NCBI GenBank assembly: GCA_042408215.1
Contig: JAYFMW010000003.1
Coordinates: forward strand, 384,001 to 448,000
From: Microcoleus sp.
Lineage (GTDB): Bacteria > Cyanobacteriota > Cyanobacteriia > Cyanobacteriales > Microcoleaceae
Reading direction: 5' to 3'
DNA length: 64,000 nt
Shown here: positions 14,164-57,510 of the stretch, in pieces
Layout of the letters: every line of letters begins with the position of its first letter
Numbering within the stretch: position 1 is the stretch's first letter
Notes under the pieces: model-generated
The model's database searches: none
The model's input: the letters and a program-made list of their open reading frames with translations, nothing else
Told to the model about the DNA's origin: nothing
Program-made: the position numbers and the translations under genes

Positions 14164-14206
14164 TCTGCCAAAATGGCAACACCAGCCAAATTTATTGATT
14201 TACGAT
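14164..14206 (+). promoter_or_regulatory. TCTGCCAAAATGGCAACAC operator plus -10 box TACGAT for the RTX gene
   Basis: Palindrome TGCCA-AAA-TGGCA then 22 nt then TAN3T; same spacing at four other sites. Confidence 0.75.
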
Positions 14207-14247
14207 CGTAAAAACTGCATTTGTGGGAATCAAAAACACATAATATC

Positions 14248-15570
14248 ATGGCGAATACTCTATTTTTACAACCAAGTTCTCCCCTGGATAATTCCAATCC
14301 TAACTATGCTCGTGCTACAGGAGGGGCTGTTTTTTCCCACTATAGTCAAACGGCTTCAGGAACTTTGACTGCCACCGAGGCTGATACGTTAGTCAAAGGT
14401 GGGGTATCTGCTGCTATTGCTGATGCCAAAGCTCTAGCTGATTTTAGCAACGATCCAAATTTTTCTGCCCTCTTTACTAACAGTGCTGTAATTGGTATTG
14501 GTGGAGCATCTCAGGGAAGTTCTAGCAGTGAAGCTAAAGTGATTGCTAATTTTTCTGTCGCCAAAAATCAAACTTTCTCTTTCGATTTTGCAACTGGGTT
14601 ACAACTACAAGCCAAAGAAATTGAAAATCCTCAAGCTGAATATAACCAGGCTCAGGGAAAAACCTCTTTCGTTGTGTTAGAAACATCCGATGCCAAAAAG
14701 CCGAAAGTATTAGATTATTTTGGCATGAACGGGAAGTTAATTTCTTCTGAGCGAATCGGCGATCTGAAGTTGGGATCTAGCCGCAACGTTACCATTGCTA
14801 ATCAGCAGAAAAATACTGATATTGATGGCAACAATGGCATAGATTTTGTGACAGGCGCGGCTGGAGGTACATATCAGAGACAGTTTAACAGCGATACAAA
14901 CATAACCATAGTGGAACTCAATACCAGTGACACTAAATTTAAGCAGGATACTGCTATTGGTAAACTAGGTTCAGATGTCACCTATGGCACTATCTGGAAT
15001 GATAAAATAGACGGCACTAAAGACGCAGACGGGAAGACAACCAAAGGCGAAGATGGCGATCGTCAACTAAAGGGAACCAACAGCGCAGACAAAATATATG
15101 GCAGCCTGGGAGACGATCAAATCAATGGAGAAGGAGGCGATGATATCCTTGAAGGTGGTTCAGGCAAGGATAAGTTGGACGGTGGTGACGGAAACGATAA
15201 ACTTTATGGCAGTGATGATAATGATACCCTGACTGGTGGTTCAGGTAATGATACCCTGGTTGGTGGTGTTGGCAATGATGTGATGCGGGGCAATCAGGGT
15301 AAGGATCTCTTTCTTTTCCAGAATGGTGATAGCTTGCTCACAGGGGAGTTAGATGTTATCAAGGATTTCAAAGCTGATAAAGATCAGATGGGATTGCAGG
15401 GATGGGGTACGATTAATGCCTCAGATTTGTTGCGGGGAATTGCGACATCACCATTCCAGATCAGCGATACCAAAGATGGTACTATTTTAAGTTCTAGTTC
15501 GGGTGGAAAAGTTCTTTTGGAAGGTGTGAAATTAACTCAACTCAGTGCCAATAATTTCATGTTTTCTTAA
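14248..15570 (+). CDS. RTX (hemolysin-type Ca-binding) secreted protein
   Basis: Multiple GGxGxDxLx nonapeptides, DVIKDF, C-terminal T1SS-type LSANNFMFS. Confidence 0.9.
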   Translation: MANTLFLQPSSPLDNSNPNYARATGGAVFSHYSQTASGTLTATEADTLVKGGVSAAIADAKALADFSNDPNFSALFTNSAVIGIGGASQGSSSSEAKVIANFSVAKNQTFSFDFATGLQLQAKEIENPQAEYNQAQGKTSFVVLETSDAKKPKVLDYFGMNGKLISSERIGDLKLGSSRNVTIANQQKNTDIDGNNGIDFVTGAAGGTYQRQFNSDTNITIVELNTSDTKFKQDTAIGKLGSDVTYGTIWNDKIDGTKDADGKTTKGEDGDRQLKGTNSADKIYGSLGDDQINGEGGDDILEGGSGKDKLDGGDGNDKLYGSDDNDTLTGGSGNDTLVGGVGNDVMRGNQGKDLFLFQNGDSLLTGELDVIKDFKADKDQMGLQGWGTINASDLLRGIATSPFQISDTKDGTILSSSSGGKVLLEGVKLTQLSANNFMFS

Positions 15571-15636
15571 ATAGGCATCCAAATGAGGGGCTTTTCCCAA
15601 CAGAGTTGTTCTGTCATAGCATGAAATTAACAGCCA

Positions 15637-15673
15637 AAATAGAGGGCATCCTCAGCTAGGATGCCCTCTATTT
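15637..15673. terminator. Perfect inverted repeat between convergent genes (bidirectional terminator)
   Basis: AAATAGAGGGCATCCT-cagct-AGGATGCCCTCTATTT. Confidence 0.75.
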
Positions 15674-15855
15674 CGATCGCTGTCAATCCCAGTGACTAAC
15701 TTAATTTGGTGCGACGGTTCCGCGATTAAGCTAACTGCTAGAAGGTGAAACTATCCTGTGGCTGAAAATTTTAGAGCGCTCTTATGATGGAGCGCTCCTT
15801 GATTATCGGCAATTCGACAAAATTAATGTCAAACCACCGTCCAAATTTCGACCAT

Positions 15856-18018
15856 TTAGCCAAAAATGATAGTATCTCCCTTGGCAGCACTAAAGCCCGT
15901 ACTGCCAGCAGCCTTGTAGAGCGTATTGAAGCCCTCGCTGGTGTAGTTACCCCAAGCATCAGGGCCGACCCCACTAGAGGATGTGAGTCGGTTGGAGATC
16001 ATAGTGCTGCCTCCAACCTTAGCAGTAGCTCCAGTAGCGTTGTAGATACCACCACCAGTTGCGGCGCGGTTCCCAGAAACCAAGCTGTTGTTTCTCAGGG
16101 TTAAGGTTCCTGGTGTTGTGCCATTACCATTATAGATACCGCCACCTTGTCCGGCTGTGGAATTGCTCTTGATGGTGGTGTTCGTTATATTGGCGGTTCC
16201 AACATTAAAGACACCACCGCCAGCACCGGTACTACTCGTTGTCTTGTTGCCTTGAATCAGGGTGTTGTCCATAGAAACTATTGTGCCGAAGTTGGCAATG
16301 CCGCCACCGGCTTTGACCGCCGTGCCATTGTTAATTAGACTGGTAGTGACAGTCACAGAGGCTCCAGAACGGTTATAGATGCCGCCGCCGAAGCCTCCCG
16401 CCTGATTATTGTTGGAGAAGGTATCGTTATCTAACGTCAGGGCAGCACCAGTCGAATTGTAAATTCCACCTCCATCTGTAGAGATGGCTTGGTTGGTGTT
16501 AAATGTACTATTTCTTGCCTCCAGAACACCAGAGTTTAAGGCAGCACCGGACTTAGTGTTGTAAATTCCACCACCACTAATGCTGGCTTTGTTGCTGTCA
16601 AAAGTACCGCCGTTCACCACCATATTGCCAGCGTTATATATCCCAGCGCCATATTGCTGGGCAATGTTACTGTTAAATTTACTGTTGACCACGTTGACTA
16701 AAGGCAGGGAAGAATTGGCCACGGAGCTACTGGCATTGTAAAGCCCACCGCCCTGTACCGCAGAATTATTACTAAATGTGCCACCGCTTACCAGCATACT
16801 GCCAGCATTGAATATTGCACCGCCAATTTGTGATGAACTATTAGCATCAAATGTACTGTTGCCCACGGTGAGGGCGGCACCAGTGGGGTTGTAAATCGCA
16901 CCGCCCTGTAATGCGGAATTCTTGCTAAATGTGTTGCCGCCATTCAATAGCAAACTACCAACATTTAATATTGCACCGCCAACTTGTGATGCCTTATTAT
17001 TTGTAAGTGTACTGTTGGAGAGTGTTAGAGCACTTCCATTGTTGTAAATTCCAGCACCAGCACCAGCACCAGCAAAACCTTTGTCAATAGTGACTCCGGT
17101 AATATTTACGGTTGCACTGACTAAAGCGCTATTCACAACCTTCTGAATCACAAATACGCGACTAGCATTATTACCACTAATGGTGAGCAAATTTGCTCCC
17201 GGGCCAGTAATTGTAAGGTCATCGCCGATTACCAGTTGTCCAGTCGTCAGGGTAATGGTATCTGGAGTAGTATCAGCCATCGTTCCTGTAAAGTTGATCG
17301 TATCAGCACCCGCCGCCGCATTGGCATCTAAAATTGCCTGACGCAATGAGCCCGCGCCACTGTCACTGTTATTGGTGACAGAAAACGTTGCCAGTGTGTG
17401 ATTGTAGCCTTCCTGTACCGAGGATGGCAAAATGTTAGGGTTTTCGATCGCCCCAGTCGAAAACTCCAAGTTCCAGTTACCTCCCACAGACGCGCTACCT
17501 GTCAGGTCTTTAGACGCTCCTACATCGGCTCCAGTTAGCTCGTCAATTTGTTGCACAAAGTCTTGCCCCGCTTTACTAGCTGCCACATTGCAGCCATAAA
17601 GCAGAATGTCCGCATCTTCGGTTAGTGATCCTCTCCAATTAGTCAGCTTATCGGCATAGTTACCCAAGTTATTGAGATTGAGATCTGTCGCTCCAAGTTG
17701 TAAATGTCCATCGCTACCATGGGAGAAGATAGACAAACTCTTAATGTCACTCAGACCTGATAGAACTTGAGTAATCTGAGTTAATTCATCTTGTGATGGA
17801 TCGAGTACCCATATATCTGTGTTCGGCGGCAAACCCTTAACTAAGTCTTGATAGTCTTGAACATTGGAGTCAATGAAAGCAATATTAGAAGACTTAGAAG
17901 TTTGTCCAAGGGTGCGGAAATGCTCCTGTCCTGTCCCCCCTAAATAAGCCATCGCACTGGATGGGGCGGCGGGAATACCAGAAAGTGCTGAATTGTCAGG
18001 CGAGTACCATGTTTGCAT
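15856..18018 (-). CDS. DUF4347 domain protein with GGAIYN (polymorphic-membrane-protein-like) beta-helix repeats
   Basis: FIDSNVQDYQDL, SHGSDG, ILLYGCNVA, LTGADVGAS, GGNWNLE; DSGAGSLRQAI; repeated FxxN/GGGIYN. Confidence 0.88.
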   Translation of the reverse strand: MQTWYSPDNSALSGIPAAPSSAMAYLGGTGQEHFRTLGQTSKSSNIAFIDSNVQDYQDLVKGLPPNTDIWVLDPSQDELTQITQVLSGLSDIKSLSIFSHGSDGHLQLGATDLNLNNLGNYADKLTNWRGSLTEDADILLYGCNVAASKAGQDFVQQIDELTGADVGASKDLTGSASVGGNWNLEFSTGAIENPNILPSSVQEGYNHTLATFSVTNNSDSGAGSLRQAILDANAAAGADTINFTGTMADTTPDTITLTTGQLVIGDDLTITGPGANLLTISGNNASRVFVIQKVVNSALVSATVNITGVTIDKGFAGAGAGAGIYNNGSALTLSNSTLTNNKASQVGGAILNVGSLLLNGGNTFSKNSALQGGAIYNPTGAALTVGNSTFDANSSSQIGGAIFNAGSMLVSGGTFSNNSAVQGGGLYNASSSVANSSLPLVNVVNSKFNSNIAQQYGAGIYNAGNMVVNGGTFDSNKASISGGGIYNTKSGAALNSGVLEARNSTFNTNQAISTDGGGIYNSTGAALTLDNDTFSNNNQAGGFGGGIYNRSGASVTVTTSLINNGTAVKAGGGIANFGTIVSMDNTLIQGNKTTSSTGAGGGVFNVGTANITNTTIKSNSTAGQGGGIYNGNGTTPGTLTLRNNSLVSGNRAATGGGIYNATGATAKVGGSTMISNRLTSSSGVGPDAWGNYTSEGFNTLYKAAGSTGFSAAKGDTIIFG

Positions 18019-18260
18019 ATCTAATTCTTCCTTTTTTATCAGGGGTGACTAATTGTTTATTTAGCTTGATTAAAGCCATAAATTTCCACAGAGTTCACGA
18101 AAAAAAAATCAATGGTAGACAGGATTTAATTGGCTCTAAAAACGTGGCTAATTCTAAACAGATTTTTTTTTGTTTTTGTTATTTGTTTAGAGTGAAATTG
18201 AATGCTTGAATGGTCATAGGTAATATTCACCTCAATGCCATTACATGACCAGTATCCTTC

Positions 18261-18551
18261 TTACTGACTGATAGCCGCCACGGAGGTGCTGGAAGAGAAA
18301 GAACCAGTGCCATAAGTTACCACAGCCAAGGTATTAGCCATTGTGAAGCTGTCAAGAGTTCCGTCGTAGGTTCCAGGATCAGCAACGGCTTTAGCACCCG
18401 CAGAAGCGTAGTTGCCGGAAGACAAGGATGGGGAGTTGATATTAAGAGTAAACGAATTTTTAGTGCCGAAGCTGACGGTATTTTTCAAACCACCTTGAAC
18501 CGCCGCAGCTTCAGAAACAACTTCCAAGTAATTCAGATCAGAAATATTCAT
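18261..18551 (-). CDS. Small secreted protein with double-glycine leader
   Basis: MNISDLNYLEVVSEAAAVQGG leader; Ser/Ala/Thr/Gly-rich core; paralog at 18906-19205. Confidence 0.8.
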   Translation of the reverse strand: MNISDLNYLEVVSEAAAVQGGLKNTVSFGTKNSFTLNINSPSLSSGNYASAGAKAVADPGTYDGTLDSFTMANTLAVVTYGTGSFSSSTSVAAISQ

Positions 18552-18612
18552 TGTTTTGTCCTTTTTGTTTGTGATTTGTTTGTCAGAAGCAACTTTTTGT
18601 GGTTCTGTATTT

Positions 18613-18655
18613 AAGATAGGGAGAATAATCAGACCTGTGTTGCCATTTTGGCAGA
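18613..18655 (-). promoter_or_regulatory. Operator plus -10 box TATCTT
   Basis: TCTGCCAAAATGGCAACAC on minus strand, 22 nt after TGGCA comes TATCTT. Confidence 0.75.
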
Positions 18656-18905
18656 TTAATTTTGACTGGGGTGAAAATTACAAAAATCACCTCCTCTAAT
18701 ATTAATTATGTCAAAAATTTCAAGAAAATACATTTTTTTGACAGTCATATTAATAACTTAATTGCCATTCTATTTGACTAACTAAGCTAATGATAAACAG
18801 ATAACAAAAATGGAGTTTCTGTTATCTGTTTATAGTGAAATTGAATGATTACGGGGTCATAGGTAACATTCACCTAAATGCCATTACCTATGACCAGTAT
18901 GCTTC

Positions 18906-19205
18906 TTAGTTATTGATAGCCGCAACGGAGGTGCTGCCAGAGAAAGAAGCGCCGCCATAAGTTACTACAGCTAAGGTGTCAGCTTTGGTGAAGCTGTTCA
19001 AAGTACCGCAGTAGTCGCCATCAGCAGAGGCTTTAGCACCAGCAGAAGCGAAGTTGCCGTCAGGCAAGCATGGGGCGTCGATCGTCAGAGTAAAGGAATT
19101 TGTGGTGTTGAAGGTGATATCAACGGTATCGGTTTCAGACCAACCACCTTGAACTGCGGCAGATTCCGAAACAACTTCCAAGTAATTCAGGTCAGAAATA
19201 ATCAT
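18906..19205 (-). CDS. Small secreted protein with double-glycine leader
   Basis: MIISDLNYLEVVSESAAVQGG leader; core similar to 18261-18551. Confidence 0.8.
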   Translation of the reverse strand: MIISDLNYLEVVSESAAVQGGWSETDTVDITFNTTNSFTLTIDAPCLPDGNFASAGAKASADGDYCGTLNSFTKADTLAVVTYGGASFSGSTSVAAINN

Positions 19206-19252
19206 GGCTTTTGTCCTTTTTAAAGTGAGGTTTTTTTGTTTTCCTGTTACCT

Positions 19253-19463
19253 AATTTAGCTTGCCTTGTGGTGTCTGTGTTGCCATTTTGGCAGAAGCTT
19301 TTTTCGGTAACAACTTTGTTTGTCTGTAATCAATCTATCAAAGGTTAACAAGGATATGTTGCCATTTTGGCAGAAGCTTTTTCTGTTTGGCTGAACAACT
19401 TTGTTTCCTTCGATGTCCTTAATATAACTAGGCTTTTTCCACCTGTGTTGCCAATTTGGCAGA
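19253..19463 (-). promoter_or_regulatory. Three stacked operator/-10 promoter units
   Basis: Motifs at 19277-19295, 19356-19374, 19445-19463, each followed 22 nt after TGGCA by TAAATT, TAGATT, TATATT. Confidence 0.75.
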
Positions 19464-19639
19464 TTTATGATTTTTTTTTGAGATGAATTGGGTGCCGGGC
19501 TAAAACCCTTTGTTTAAGCAGGTTTTACTCATAAATAAGACTCTGAAAATTTCCCAAACTTTCAGAGCCGATAGTTTCACTAGATTTTTTAGCACCCATT
19601 TATAAGATGAGATGGTCACTGAGTGCCTTGGACAAAAGT

Positions 19640-19850
19640 TGCCAAAATGGCAGTTTTCAGAAGAGACGAGTCAATTCTCAAAACCTTGCCATTTTGGCAG
19701 ATTTTTGGGAAGGGAAATATGAATTAGGCGCGCCAAAATCTTGAAATCTTCACAGATTCTTTACATACAATTTATTTAGTTCAGATTCTGGAATGCCCAT
19801 AATCTATATCTAAATATAGAAAACAGGGGGTGTGTTGCCATTTTGGCAGG
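19640..19850. promoter_or_regulatory. Three further TGCCAWWWTGGCA sites
   Basis: 19640-19652, 19687-19699, 19832-19850; the 19832 site has no TAN3T at the 22-nt position and the other two lack the ACAC extension. Confidence 0.6.
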
Positions 19851-21204: not shown

Positions 21205-21325
21205 AGGTTTGGTTTTTGTGGGACAAATTGTGATATCTTTCTAAAACCTGAAAGCGGGAAAGTCCGGTGCAATTCCGGCGCTGTGCCGCAACTGTGAAAG
21301 TCAGAATGCCGATTTCGGGTTGACT
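21205..21325 (+). ncRNA. Cobalamin (B12) riboswitch
   Basis: GGGAAAGTCCGGTGCAATTCCGGCGCTGTGCCGCAACTGT..AAGTCAGAATGCC core upstream of cobG; boundaries approximate. Confidence 0.88.
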
Positions 21326-23064: not shown

Positions 23065-23295
23065 GTCAGGAACTCAGGTCTAAAGACACGCTCGCTTGTA
23101 AGAAATTACAAGCTATTCTGACCAGACCCCTTTCACGAGGAGACGTTATTTAGGTCACGATACCGGAGAATGCGACGCTAGTTTTCCGCTCTATCATCTG
23201 CAATTAAACAGTTTTAAAGTCACTGAAACAGTGTTGCAGGTCAAAAAAGCCTTTATAACCAGGTCGAAGCGAACATTACAAGCAATTGGAGGGAC
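23065..23295 (+). ncRNA. IscB omega-RNA (HEARO-type) scaffold
   Basis: TGACCAG, ACGTTATTT, GAATGCGACGCTAGTTTT, TTAAACAGTTTTAAAGTCAC, GCGAACATTAC blocks shared with the ORF-less copy; lies directly upstream of iscB. Confidence 0.8.
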
Positions 23296-26572: not shown

Positions 26573-27655
26573 ATGACAACAACCTTACAGCAACGCGAAA
26601 GCGCCAATGTCTGGGAACGCTTCTGCGAATGGGTCACAAGCACAGACAACCGGATTTATATCGGTTGGTTCGGCGTCTTGATGATTCCTACCCTCTTAAG
26701 CGCCACCATCTGCTACATCGTCGCCTTCATTGGTGCACCTCCTGTAGACATCGACGGCATCCGCGAACCAGTTGCTGGTTCCTTGATGTTCGGTAACAAC
26801 ATCATCACAGGTGCTGTTGTTCCTTCTTCTAACGCGATCGGCTTACACTTCTACCCAATCTGGGAAGCTGCTTCCCTCGATGAGTGGTTGTACAACGGCG
26901 GCCCTTACCAATTGGTAATTTTCCACTTCCTGATCGGTGTATTTTGCTACATGGGTCGTGAATGGGAACTGTCCTACCGCTTAGGAATGCGCCCTTGGAT
27001 TTGCGTAGCCTACTCTGCACCAGTTGCAGCAGCTACCGCAGTATTCTTGATCTACCCGATCGGACAAGGCTCATTCTCAGACGGTATGCCTTTGGGTATC
27101 TCCGGTACATTCAACTTCATGATCGTGTTCCAAGCTGAGCACAACATCCTGATGCACCCCTTCCACATGTTGGGAGTTGCTGGTGTATTCGGTGGTTCTT
27201 TGTTCTCCGCCATGCACGGTTCTTTGGTAACATCTTCCTTGGTTCGTGAAACAACCGAAACCGAATCGCAAAACTACGGTTACAAATTCGGTCAAGAAGA
27301 AGAAACCTACAACATCGTTGCAGCCCACGGCTACTTCGGTCGTTTGATTTTCCAATATGCGAGCTTTAACAACAGCCGTTCTTTGCACTTCTTCTTGGGT
27401 GCATGGCCAGTTGTCGGTATCTGGTTCACAGCACTGGGTATCTCCACAATGGCTTTCAACTTGAACGGTTTCAACTTCAACCAATCGATTATCGACTCTC
27501 AAGGTCGTGTCATCAACACTTGGGCTGATGTCATCAACCGCGCTAACTTGGGTATGGAAGTAATGCACGAGCGCAATGCTCACAACTTCCCTCTCGACTT
27601 GGCCGCTGGTGAAACAACTCCTGTGGCTTTGGTTGCTCCTTCTATCAACGGCTAA
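26573..27655 (+). CDS. psbA: Photosystem II D1 protein (Glu130 form)
   Basis: Canonical 360-aa D1; [20 protein letters not shown]. Confidence 0.99.
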
Positions 27656-27674
27656 GTTTTAGCTTTTGATTAAC

Positions 27675-27707
27675 AAAAAGCGCTCCTAGAAATAGGGGCG
27701 CTTTTTG
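27675..27707 (+). terminator. Intrinsic terminator
   Basis: AAAAAGCGCTCCTA-gaaa-TAGGGGCGCTTTTT. Confidence 0.85.
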
Positions 27708-27927
27708 TTTGGGAAAAAAGATTTTTCTAACGTTCTTTGTGGCTGAGTTTCTTATTTATTTAAACTACGTTTCTTCAGACACAGCAAGCAATCCAACGTC
27801 CGATAACCAAAACTTATCACCGTCATCAGTTTAACTGTCGCCAAACCCCTTTACAAACCAGAGTGATTACCGTAATAATAGAGACATCATCCGAACATTG
27901 ACAACCAAATACAGCAATCATAAACAA

Positions 27928-29010
27928 ATGACAACAACCTTACAACAACGCGAAAGCGCCAATGTCTGGGAACGCTTCTGCGAGTGGGTCACAAGCACAG
28001 ACAACCGGATTTATATCGGTTGGTTCGGCGTCTTGATGATTCCTACCCTCTTAAGCGCCACCATCTGCTACATCGTCGCCTTCATTGGTGCACCTCCTGT
28101 AGACATCGACGGCATCCGCGAACCAGTGGCTGGTTCCTTGATGTTCGGTAACAACATCATCACAGGTGCTGTTGTTCCTTCGTCTAACGCCATCGGTCTT
28201 CACTTCTACCCAATCTGGGAAGCTGCTTCCCTCGATGAGTGGTTGTACAACGGCGGCCCTTACCAATTGGTAATTTTCCACTTCCTGATCGGTGTATTTT
28301 GCTACATGGGTCGTGAATGGGAACTGTCCTACCGCTTAGGAATGCGCCCTTGGATTTGCGTAGCCTACTCTGCACCAGTTGCAGCAGCTACCGCAGTATT
28401 CTTGATCTACCCGATCGGACAAGGCTCCTTCTCAGACGGTATGCCTTTGGGTATCTCCGGTACATTCAACTTCATGATCGTGTTCCAAGCCGAGCACAAC
28501 ATCCTGATGCACCCCTTCCATATGTTGGGAGTTGCTGGTGTCTTCGGTGGTTCTTTGTTCTCCGCCATGCACGGTTCTTTGGTAACATCTTCCTTGGTTC
28601 GTGAAACAACCGAAACCGAATCGCAAAACTACGGTTACAAATTCGGTCAAGAAGAAGAAACCTACAACATCGTTGCAGCCCACGGCTACTTCGGTCGTTT
28701 GATTTTCCAATATGCGAGCTTTAACAACAGCCGTTCTTTGCACTTCTTCTTGGGTGCATGGCCAGTTGTCGGTATCTGGTTCACAGCACTGGGTATCTCC
28801 ACAATGGCTTTCAACTTGAACGGTTTCAACTTCAACCAATCGATTATCGACTCTCAAGGTCGTGTCATCAACACTTGGGCTGATGTCATCAACCGCGCTA
28901 ACTTGGGTATGGAAGTAATGCACGAGCGCAATGCTCACAACTTCCCTCTCGACTTGGCCGCTGGTGAAACAACTCCTGTGGCTTTGGTTGCTCCTTCTAT
29001 CAACGGCTAA
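27928..29010 (+). CDS. psbA: Photosystem II D1 protein, second tandem copy
   Basis: Protein identical to the first copy; few synonymous differences. Confidence 0.99.
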
Positions 29011-32163: not shown

Positions 32164-33456
32164 ATGCCTTATTTGACAGTAGCCAACGAAATCAAAGCAC
32201 TCATCGCTAAATTTTCCCAAGCTAGAATCCTGTGGATTGATACAGAAATAGCTGACTATAAATTTAACCCCAAATTGTCTCTAATTCAGGTGTTAGCTGA
32301 CTCCAGAGACTTGACTGGCGATGCCACTTTTCTGCTCGATGTCTTGGATAAACCTGAATTGGCGACAGCTTTTATCAACCAAATCATGGTCAATCCAAAC
32401 ATTGAAAAAGTGATGCACAATGCCAGCTATGATATCAGATTTTTGGGGAATGATGATGCCAAAAATATCACTTGCACCTTGCAAATGGCGAGAAAAATTC
32501 CGGCTTATATTCTACCATTACCCAACCGACAACTGAAAACTTTAATAGAAACACTTTGTAACATTGCTTATGTAGATAAAACAGAACAAGGTGGCGATTG
32601 GGCCAAGCGTCCCCTGACTGAAAAGCAGCTAGAATATGCCAAGATGGACGCGGTTTATTTAGCTAGAGTGCATGGCCACCTGCTAGAAATTATTGACAAA
32701 TGTTACCCCGATCCCGCCACAGAAAACTTGACAGCATTGGGGAAACAATATCAGAAAATAGAAGCTCAGTGGAAACCGCTAGATTCAGAAATTGCTGAGG
32801 TTAAAGAACGCTTTAAAGCCGCGATGCTGGCGAAAAAGCTCAAAGACAGTTCTTATTTTGAGCTATCCAGTTCGATCGCGATGAAAGTAGATTTTCTCAC
32901 CCTCGCAAATCTGACGCAAACTGAGGGAATTGAGTTAAATTTTCCGGTAACGCTGACTAAAGAAATTCAAAGACAGTTAGGACAACTTATCAGTCATCCA
33001 TCTTTGCAAGTGGAGGATATTGCGAGTTGGCGGTTGACTTCCAACATACAACAGTGGCGAAAATCAACTAAAAAAATTGTGCCGGAACCGGCGAGTGAGG
33101 ATTTAGTAGCATTGGGGGAAAGGTACAAAGAAATTTTGCCTGAGTGGAAGTTGTTGGATTCAGAAATTGAGCATCTGAAAGAGCGAGTTAAAAAAGCAAT
33201 GTTGGTGCAAAATCAGGGGAATAATCCCTATTTTAAGCTCTCCAGTTCTTCTATTTTGAAAGTAGATTTTGCGAACTTGGCAAGACTTGTGCAATCTGTG
33301 GGAATTGAGTTGGATTTTATGGTGACGCTGACTCAATATATCCAAAAACGGTTAGGGGAAGCGATTAATCAAATTGATGTGCAAGTTGAGTATATTACCA
33401 GTTGGCGGATGAGGGCTAAGGCTGTGGAAGATGAAGATGAGGAAATCCCGTTTTAA
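32164..33456 (+). CDS. RNase D-like DEDDy 3'-5' exonuclease with duplicated C-terminal module
   Basis: WIDTE, LSLIQV, HNASYD, DWAKRPLT..YAKMDA; two ~105-aa repeats; ends EDEDEEIPF. Confidence 0.88.
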   Translation: MPYLTVANEIKALIAKFSQARILWIDTEIADYKFNPKLSLIQVLADSRDLTGDATFLLDVLDKPELATAFINQIMVNPNIEKVMHNASYDIRFLGNDDAKNITCTLQMARKIPAYILPLPNRQLKTLIETLCNIAYVDKTEQGGDWAKRPLTEKQLEYAKMDAVYLARVHGHLLEIIDKCYPDPATENLTALGKQYQKIEAQWKPLDSEIAEVKERFKAAMLAKKLKDSSYFELSSSIAMKVDFLTLANLTQTEGIELNFPVTLTKEIQRQLGQLISHPSLQVEDIASWRLTSNIQQWRKSTKKIVPEPASEDLVALGERYKEILPEWKLLDSEIEHLKERVKKAMLVQNQGNNPYFKLSSSSILKVDFANLARLVQSVGIELDFMVTLTQYIQKRLGEAINQIDVQVEYITSWRMRAKAVEDEDEEIPF

Positions 33457-57113: not shown

Positions 57114-57510
57114 GTCAGTAACTCAGCCCGCTCCGGGACTGAGCTTGTAAGAGTAATCGCACTTCGATTTCGCGAGCGTGACCGGCTGTACTGACCAGCT
57201 ATCGTCTTAACTGACTACGTTATTTGAGTCAAGACACTGCTTGAATGCGACGCTAGTTTTGGGCTCTGTCGCTAGTGGTTAAACAGTTTTAAAGTCACGC
57301 TTTACAGTGCTGCTAGCCCAACAAGCTCTTATAACAAAGGCGCGCGCGAACATTACCCGCAAGGGATTCGGAGACAACCCGATCTCCACTCTGGGGCAAC
57401 CATACCCCTCCACCCCCACCAGGGGGATTCACTCTTGACTGAAGTCCCCCTTAGAGTTTCCCACTCTTCGGGCTGAAGCCTCTGAGTTTCCCACTTACCG
57501 AACTTTTTTT
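57114..57510 (+). ncRNA. Standalone IscB-type omega-RNA in a non-autonomous element
   Basis: Colinear blocks with 23065-23295 and the same 3' end GAGTTTCCCACTTACCGA..TTTTT followed by ATGA; no iscB ORF. Confidence 0.85.

Follow-up and report, generated by a model that had tools for sequence, protein, structure and literature searches.

The locus described here lies in a 64-kb window of the Microcoleus sp. genome (contig JAYFMW010000003.1; "the window" denotes the whole stretch of 64,000 nucleotides analyzed) and comprises a gene for an RTX calcium-binding repeat protein, a converging DUF4347 gene, and two genes for small proteins with a glycine-glycine (GG) leader, together with repeated copies of a palindrome, TGCCA-WWW-TGGCA (W, A or T), that is the subject of this study (Table 1). 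The motif TGCCANNNTGGCA has eight exact matches in the window, all with A/T cores and all between positions 14166 and 19848. A preliminary description of this DNA had placed eight sites at 14.1-19.9 kb and none elsewhere, and an exact-match scan of the whole window agrees with it. The mean count expected from 100 dinucleotide shuffles was 0.08, none of the shuffles (0/100) reached eight, and a search allowing one mismatch added only positions 33270 and 55197.

Read toward the nearest gene, a TAN3T hexamer follows the TGGCA arm after exactly 22 nucleotides (N22) at five of the eight sites, compared with 0/8 in the opposite orientation; the chance rate of TAN3T in these intergenic stretches is 0.8-3.2% per position. 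The five hexamers (TACGAT, TATCTT, TAAATT, TAGATT, and TATATT), which lie in gene orientation, are exactly those reported initially. A 19-nt extended form of the site, proposed at the same time for six positions, is exact at 14164, 18637, and 19277 and deviates at 19356 (ending in CAACAT), 19445 (core AAT), and 19832 (starting with CCTG). The last of these (19832/19836) carries TTAGAT at N22 and no TAN3T, with TATATT at N17; its counterpart in the relative L258 likewise lacks an N22 box. The two unboxed palindromes between 19640 and 19699 are possible auxiliary or decayed sites.

Table 1. Sites, predicted promoters, and genes at the locus (window coordinates).
Feature	Position	Strand	Remarks
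Site 1, TGCCAAAATGGCA followed by ACAC	14166..14178	+	Exact match
-10 box TACGAT at N22	14201..14206	+	Predicted start 14213 (inferred)
RTX calcium-binding repeat protein, 440 aa from ATG (TTG at 14221)	14248..15570	+	PF00353, E 9e-35
Terminator-like hairpin, 19 pairs	15634..15676		Between the converging RTX and DUF4347 genes
DUF4347/beta-helix/Chlam_PMP repeat protein, 720 aa	15856..18018	-	Domain search
GG-leader small protein 2, 96 aa	18261..18551	-	MNISDLNYLEVVSEAAAVQGG leader; remainder rich in S/T/A/G
-10 box TATCTT at N22	18613..18618	-	Predicted start 18606
Site 2	18641..18653	-	Exact match
GG-leader small protein 1, 99 aa	18906..19205	-	72% identical to protein 2
Promoter unit 3	19253..19293	-	Site 19281-19293; -10 TAAATT 19253-19258; predicted start 19246
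Promoter unit 4	19332..19372	-	Site 19360-19372; -10 TAGATT 19332-19337; predicted start 19325
Promoter unit 5	19421..19461	-	Site 19449-19461; -10 TATATT 19421-19426; predicted start 19414
Two palindromes, 19640-19652 and 19687-19699	19640..19699		No N22 box on either strand
Site 8	19836..19848	-	No TAN3T at N22; TATATT at N17

In the whole genome the palindrome was found 20 times with any core (NNN), and 15 of these copies have W cores, compared with 2.3-2.4 expected. A control palindrome with a permuted arm, CAGTC-WWW-GACTG, reaches 12 copies in the genome (G000), so that the count of 15 W-core sites is not decisive by itself. The 16-mer TGCCAAAWTGGCAACA occurs 11 times against 0.04 expected (Markov orders 3-6). 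TAN3T is present at N22 in 7 of these 11 copies and in none at offsets 18-21 or 23-28. Outside the window, a site with TAN3T at N22 precedes an RTX-repeat gene (C22:34375) inside a cluster that encodes a C39 ATP-binding cassette (ABC) transporter with a cNMP domain, i.e., a peptidase-containing ABC transporter (PCAT), HlyD, a HetP-like protein, and a rotamase (peptidyl-prolyl isomerase, PPIase). Another one (C30:668200) precedes a GG-leader precursor gene, and roughly 1.5 kb farther downstream lies an ATP-grasp gene. RTX and GG-leader targets, and a PCAT cluster around one of them, had been expected elsewhere in the genome on the first inspection and were thus found. A weight-matrix scan of the genome brought up no convincing extra members. 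At C30:668284-671151, the GG precursor contains repeated T..GEEGG units, and a transposase-like open reading frame (ORF) is inserted between it and the ATP-grasp gene.

The distribution of the element was determined by scanning one genome per species (185,579 species) for the site with its N22 box, which yielded at least 122 loci; 76 of the 80 titled matches listed are cyanobacteria, from several orders. The Microcoleaceae records L024, L036, and L076 show the same arrangement as the window. A record titled Candidatus Obscuribacterales (L073) carries a three-site promoter array at a GG gene like that of the Microcoleaceae, possibly a binning error. Next genes were classified by pattern rules, with only 300 nt of flank for 42 of the 122 loci listed. 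The commonest class was a GG-leader small protein (53 loci), as had been anticipated for related genomes, followed by precursors of the ATP-grasp-linked type (11), RTX-like (8) and PEP-CTERM-like (3) proteins, sugar transferases (3), other GG proteins (2), and a PPIase (1), with 41 other or none. Three of the 122 loci listed have an antisense position in coding sequence and look like chance matches. In the relatives L270, L287, and L288, the counterparts of the window's RTX and GG genes lie inside the transporter cluster, each with its own site.

Since the search pattern for the 122 loci included the box, the spacing was tested separately in samples gathered without it. The first sample consisted of 49 loci collected by the 16-mer alone, with the genome of the window excluded. 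TAN3T was present at N22 in 43 of 61 sites, and the best other offset reached 10/61; after dereplication by spacer, the values were 20/34 and 3/34, respectively. The second sample consisted of 30 loci picked only by their HetP-family score, four of which overlap the first sample, and was scanned with a relaxed site. It contained 72 strand-counted sites in 20 loci, 31 of them with the N22 box (5 at the next best offset), and an N22-boxed site was present in 16 of the 30 loci; 30 shuffles gave a mean of 1.0 site and none with a box. The fixed spacing predicted to hold across genomes is therefore dominant in both box-free samples. Dereplicated spacers from many families have only the site and the box in common.

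Of 401 genomes of the phylum, 40 contain the exact 16-mer and 3 its reversed control. A single draw of 151 genomes from the order was divided by the presence of a HetP-family gene: the full promoter pattern was present in 46 of 52 HetP-positive vs 17 of 99 HetP-negative genomes, and the reversed control pattern in 12 of the 151. Of 15 sites inspected in 12 of the 17 HetP-negative genomes with the pattern, 12 fall inside long ORFs. Genome G016, of the same genus, has neither a site nor a HetP match.

The proteins encoded downstream of the window sites were examined for their likely nature. Both GG proteins carry a leader of the form MxISDLNYLEVVSE..VQGG, are rich in Ser, Ala, Thr, Gly, and Tyr, and matched no Pfam or NCBIfam family; NF038167 gave no match here and none in the controls either, and PF28158, with an Atlas score of 0.87, is at most a lead. 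A structural model of the GG protein has low confidence (mean predicted local distance difference test score of 59) and shows a C-terminal beta hairpin. The composition and the analogy to EbfG suggest that the cargo may build a sheath or biofilm matrix. The N-terminal 250 aa of the RTX protein resemble PEP-CTERM-like neighbors of related clusters (blastp), and a homolog of the window RTX gene sits inside the PCAT cluster in L270. No palindrome site of its own was found at the DUF4347 gene, which is possibly transcribed by read-through from the GG gene upstream.

To see whether the predicted starts have counterparts in transcripts, RNA contigs from four sets (three studies) were placed on the window at 85% likeness; such contigs cannot map starts. 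GG gene 1 was covered by RNA-library contigs in 4/4 runs. Contig ends were located at 19406 (X1), 19403 (X3), and 19403/19404 (X8), i.e., 8-11 nt inside the predicted start at 19414, and the piece listed for the fourth run ends at 19382. For GG gene 2, the end of one contig lies at 18593, the predicted start being 18606. In each of two runs, one contig joins the DUF4347 gene to 18220-18593, by which a single transcript is not proven. The RTX gene region is barely covered and thus uninformative either way. As these are RNA libraries only, without a DNA control, and the pieces listed are incomplete, they provide a weak hint from relatives and not a mapped start.

With TAN3T placed at -12 to -7, the palindrome reaches from -47 to -35 and is centered at about -41. 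Class II activators sit around this position relative to the start. No consensus -35 was found at the five window promoters, and no sigma-70 pair uses any of the five boxes. In the site profile, the 13-bp palindrome with its A/T center is extended by AAC toward the promoter and flanked by A-rich sequence upstream. By its sequence, a palindrome at fixed distance, centered near -41 and lacking a consensus -35, corresponds to class II activation. The sequence, its fixed spacing and orientation, the target classes, and the co-occurrence are observations, and the palindrome with its box is a real, conserved, oriented promoter element of a cyanobacterial secretion regulon. Factor binding, activation, and the start positions are inferred from sequence; an activator-dependent, class II-like promoter that defines this regulon is the best explanation as a whole, and we consider it likely.

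In the proposed mechanism, TGCCA-WWW-TGGCA(AC) would be the site of a cyanobacterial transcription factor, probably a dimer, centered about 41 bp upstream of the start. The bound factor would replace the normal -35 element and recruit RNA polymerase, with a primary-type sigma factor reading the TAN3T -10 box. It would thereby jointly switch on the cargo of the PCAT-HlyD-HetP-like-PPIase secretion cluster, that is, MIISDL..GG small proteins, RTX and PEP-CTERM-like surface proteins, a precursor of a peptide made on the ribosome and modified after translation (RiPP), and some sugar-transferase genes. The cargo genes of the window are set apart from the transporter (contig C22) and have kept their promoters beside them, and the promoters stacked ahead of GG gene 1 probably increase expression. 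The locus had been described as a local matrix/surface island; co-regulated secretion targets are in line with this, and a more fitting name for the set is HetP/PCAT (Wang group II) secretion-cluster regulon.

Operators usually do not keep one exact offset across orders, and N22 was sharp in both box-free samples. These points, together with the missing consensus -35 at the five promoters, argue against the site being an operator at which a repressor blocks a weak promoter, overlapping the -35 region. We regard this as improbable, even though the palindrome ends at -35 and repression of the ebfG operon was described as probably indirect, via a repressor (PMC11345509; here and below, statements on cited articles refer to the parts of their text that were covered). 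Slightly more weight, still small, can be given to an alternative sigma factor that reads the block as an extended -35 without a separate activator. The strict orientation and spacing, the conserved AAC on the promoter side, and the recent report of HetZ as an unusual cyanobacterial sigma factor (PMC13342950) would fit it. Nevertheless, the -10 box is of the primary-sigma type, the conserved block, at about -51 to -32, is presumably longer than a sigma-4 footprint, and HetZ-family proteins were not found in the site-bearing families f2, f8, f9, and f18.

Several observations weigh against a class II-like promoter as the general explanation. TAN3T at N22 is missing from three of the eight window sites (19640, 19687, and 19836) and from 14 of the 34 dereplicated box-free sites. 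Four of the five window promoters belong to a single 55-nt repeat family (60-73% identity); being related by duplication, they are not independent, and the window alone amounts to about two independent cases. The flanks of the palindrome are not mirror images (AAC on the promoter side, AWC on the far side), and a pure dimer site therefore fits imperfectly. No site was found upstream of the PCAT transporter gene of this genome by 16-mer and weight-matrix scans. Six HetP-positive genomes lack the pattern, and the HetP-negative genome G417 has a strong intergenic site; as the genomes are kin, the counts overstate independence, and no P value is claimed. When the neighborhoods of the loci were clustered (643 ORFs), no recurrent transcription factor emerged except HetP-like genes. 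Among the RNA contigs, one (X2) runs to 18645 through the predicted start at 18606, which speaks against a clean start or reflects read-through. Finally, five genome copies of the site (C6:103451, C6:457718, C6:898772, C20:450710, and C30:135803) belong to a cassette with 70-125 bp in common.

The cassette accounts for three of the four genome 16-mers without a box at N22, and its copies mostly carry TTTAAT at this offset. Its neighbors include a glycosyltransferase-like gene, a polysaccharide-cluster gene, and others; it is patchy, with 3 of 60 further family genomes carrying it, and is possibly a dispersed mobile promoter. Together with the mutual relationship of the window promoter units, the cassette would be expected if the sites were merely copies of a mobile or duplicated repeat, or antisense terminator hairpins, without a shared regulator; a terminator scan also flagged eight palindromes on the antisense strand. 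However, dereplicated spacers from many families share only site and box, the stems hold only three G-C pairs, and the RNA contigs end downstream of the outermost site. We thus rate this explanation as very improbable, the least probable of those weighed here. The possibility of a mobile repeat, raised in the preliminary description, applies to the five-copy cassette outside the window and not to most of the sites.

With regard to the putative activator, several candidates were tried, and four of them were rejected because of their distribution or their absence from this genome. HetZ or a HetZ-related sigma factor had no match in families f2 (0/8), f8 (0/2), f9 (0/8), and f18 (0/7), which include site-bearing genomes. 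An XssQ-like helix-turn-helix (HTH)-STAND gene (C9:10917) gave no match in 6 of 7 members of the family (single query), a 199-aa HTH protein of Nostocales-type clusters follows a site in G485 and was not found in this genome, and the DevH-like Crp gene has an upstream palindrome in only 2 of 19 anchored loci. Among the candidates tried, HetP-like proteins showed the best distributional fit (151 genomes), and 46 of the clustered loci have a HetP-like gene within 2.5-10 kb. Their C-terminus, KIxDLxYLE..VxGG, matches the cargo leader; a leader copy in HetP, KIXDLXYLEX10GG, was already noted by Wang et al., 2011 (PMC3140520). A structural model of the HetP-like protein consists of four short helices and has no fold match at a Z score of 5 or more.

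These results raise the question of whether the factor is the HetP-family protein of the cluster itself, a special case of the activator described above. This small helical protein would bind the palindrome, and through its C-terminal GG leader it could be bound, cleaved, or exported by the PCAT, which would tie transcription to export capacity. The distribution, the proximity of the genes, and the shared leader type support such a role, as does the designation of HetP as a DNA-binding protein in PMC13342950. The same article, however, calls this binding nonspecific, the co-occurrence follows from physical linkage with the targets, and G417 has its strong site without a HetP match, so that we regard HetP as an unlikely candidate, yet the most plausible of the alternatives. 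Rather less likely still is the full circuit, in which HetP proteins would be specific activators, the internal GG leader would make them PCAT substrates, their export would switch the regulon, and hetC-hetP, a pair that shares the promoter with a multicopy structured RNA in Nostocales-type genomes, would represent a re-used secretion-feedback circuit. Four loci (L324:1500, L325:1672, L331:1500, and L333:1500) contain a site-like sequence within the coding part of the HetP-like gene, at the codons for N-C-Q-I-G, which may be an internal promoter; three of them have TAN3T at N22.

In loci L423-L428, a site with N22 box is situated 140-500 nt behind a HetP-family gene and before a PPIase or HTH gene, and in L431 it is found elsewhere in a hetC-hetP-type cluster, an assignment that rests on domain order and adjacency. 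No GG gene was detected after the site in these seven loci. In other Nostocales-type genomes (L013, L051, L057, L069, L279, L429, L430, L432, L433, L434, and L437), the promoter lies 130-225 nt before a conserved non-coding element of about 170 nt, which is present in three tandem copies in L434. The element has a long stem, a CCCCCT(A)A loop, and a terminator, and two-sided changes occur in 11 of 45 predicted pairs. No Rfam match was obtained for this RNA or at the sites, and the RNA was not found in this genome. Elsewhere in the window, a cobalamin riboswitch before a cobalamin-synthesis-like gene and two HEARO RNAs were recognized (21240-21319, 23065-23279, and 57114-57356), as were two near-identical psbA (D1) genes in tandem (26573-29010).

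The element provides a defined, widespread promoter for the commonest unannotated GG-leader proteins of mat- and crust-forming cyanobacteria and a bait for finding its transcription factor. It touches on the control of cyanobacterial matrix-protein genes (PMC11345509) and on the link between HetC and HetP, whose relation, like the substrate of HetC, is stated as unknown in PMC10986499. Because hetC-hetP-type loci have the site immediately after hetP, both questions are open to probing in a genetic model strain. Among the further regulon members that the element predicts is a structured RNA with no Rfam family.

One of the closest known arrangements is that of NtcA, whose consensus is GTA-N8-TAC and whose class II promoters have the palindrome-N22-TAN3T geometry with a center near -41. 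As in NtcA and CRP class II promoters, the present palindrome ends 22 nt before TAN3T, is centered near -41, and is not accompanied by a consensus -35. Unlike the NtcA box, it is TGCCA-N3-TGGCA, of 13 bp with an odd center, and its targets are secretion cargo. GTA-N8-TAC is absent from the site sequence, which is therefore not an NtcA site, as had been stated at the outset, and likewise not a HetZ or XssQ site.

XssQ of Synechocystis (PMC8205485, PMC13125312) similarly activates genes for the extracellular matrix and has a short consensus close to their starts, but this consensus, AAGTTXXAC, is non-palindromic; some of the present sites share AAGTT on one flank only. Sigma-HetZ/DIF1 acts at hetC and works with HetP, the heterocyst relatives of the cluster, whereas its promoters have a -35 TCCGGA and a -10 TGnA with a 16-17 bp spacer (PMC13342950). 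The site was not described anywhere in the literature searched, which did not extend to figures, subscription papers, bioRxiv supplements, RegPrecise, or CollecTF, and a prior description may exist. No such motif was seen in the covered parts of PMC12267927, PMC9260433, PMC10068817, PMC9045159, and PMC4734099 (the last including six supplements), and the exact 13-mers were met in 7 articles, which, as judged by titles, all concern animal, cell-line, or fungal work.

The ebfG1-4/pteB system (PMC4997328, PMC11345509, PMC11420160) likewise comprises small GG-leader proteins exported by a C39 transporter, and its positive regulator is described as only putative (PMC11345509). Locus L315, in which a C39 transporter gene follows four tandem GG genes in the ebfG1-4/pteB order, lacks such a site upstream, and the one GG protein compared, the first, did not align to the GG family of the window beyond the GG itself. 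The lack of the site at this ebfG-type locus indicates a regulon parallel to, and not identical with, the ebfG system. The Wang group II bacteriocin clusters (PMC3140520) combine a long C39 ABC transporter with a nucleotide-binding domain, HlyD, rotamase, HetP-like proteins, and GG arrays. All of these parts are present at contig C22 or in relatives, with the cNMP domain on the transporter. An M16 peptidase is also mentioned in that article for such clusters. The word "promoter" does not appear in the main text of that article, and a shared upstream site and targets outside the cluster are not described there. The gene cluster type is already known from this work.

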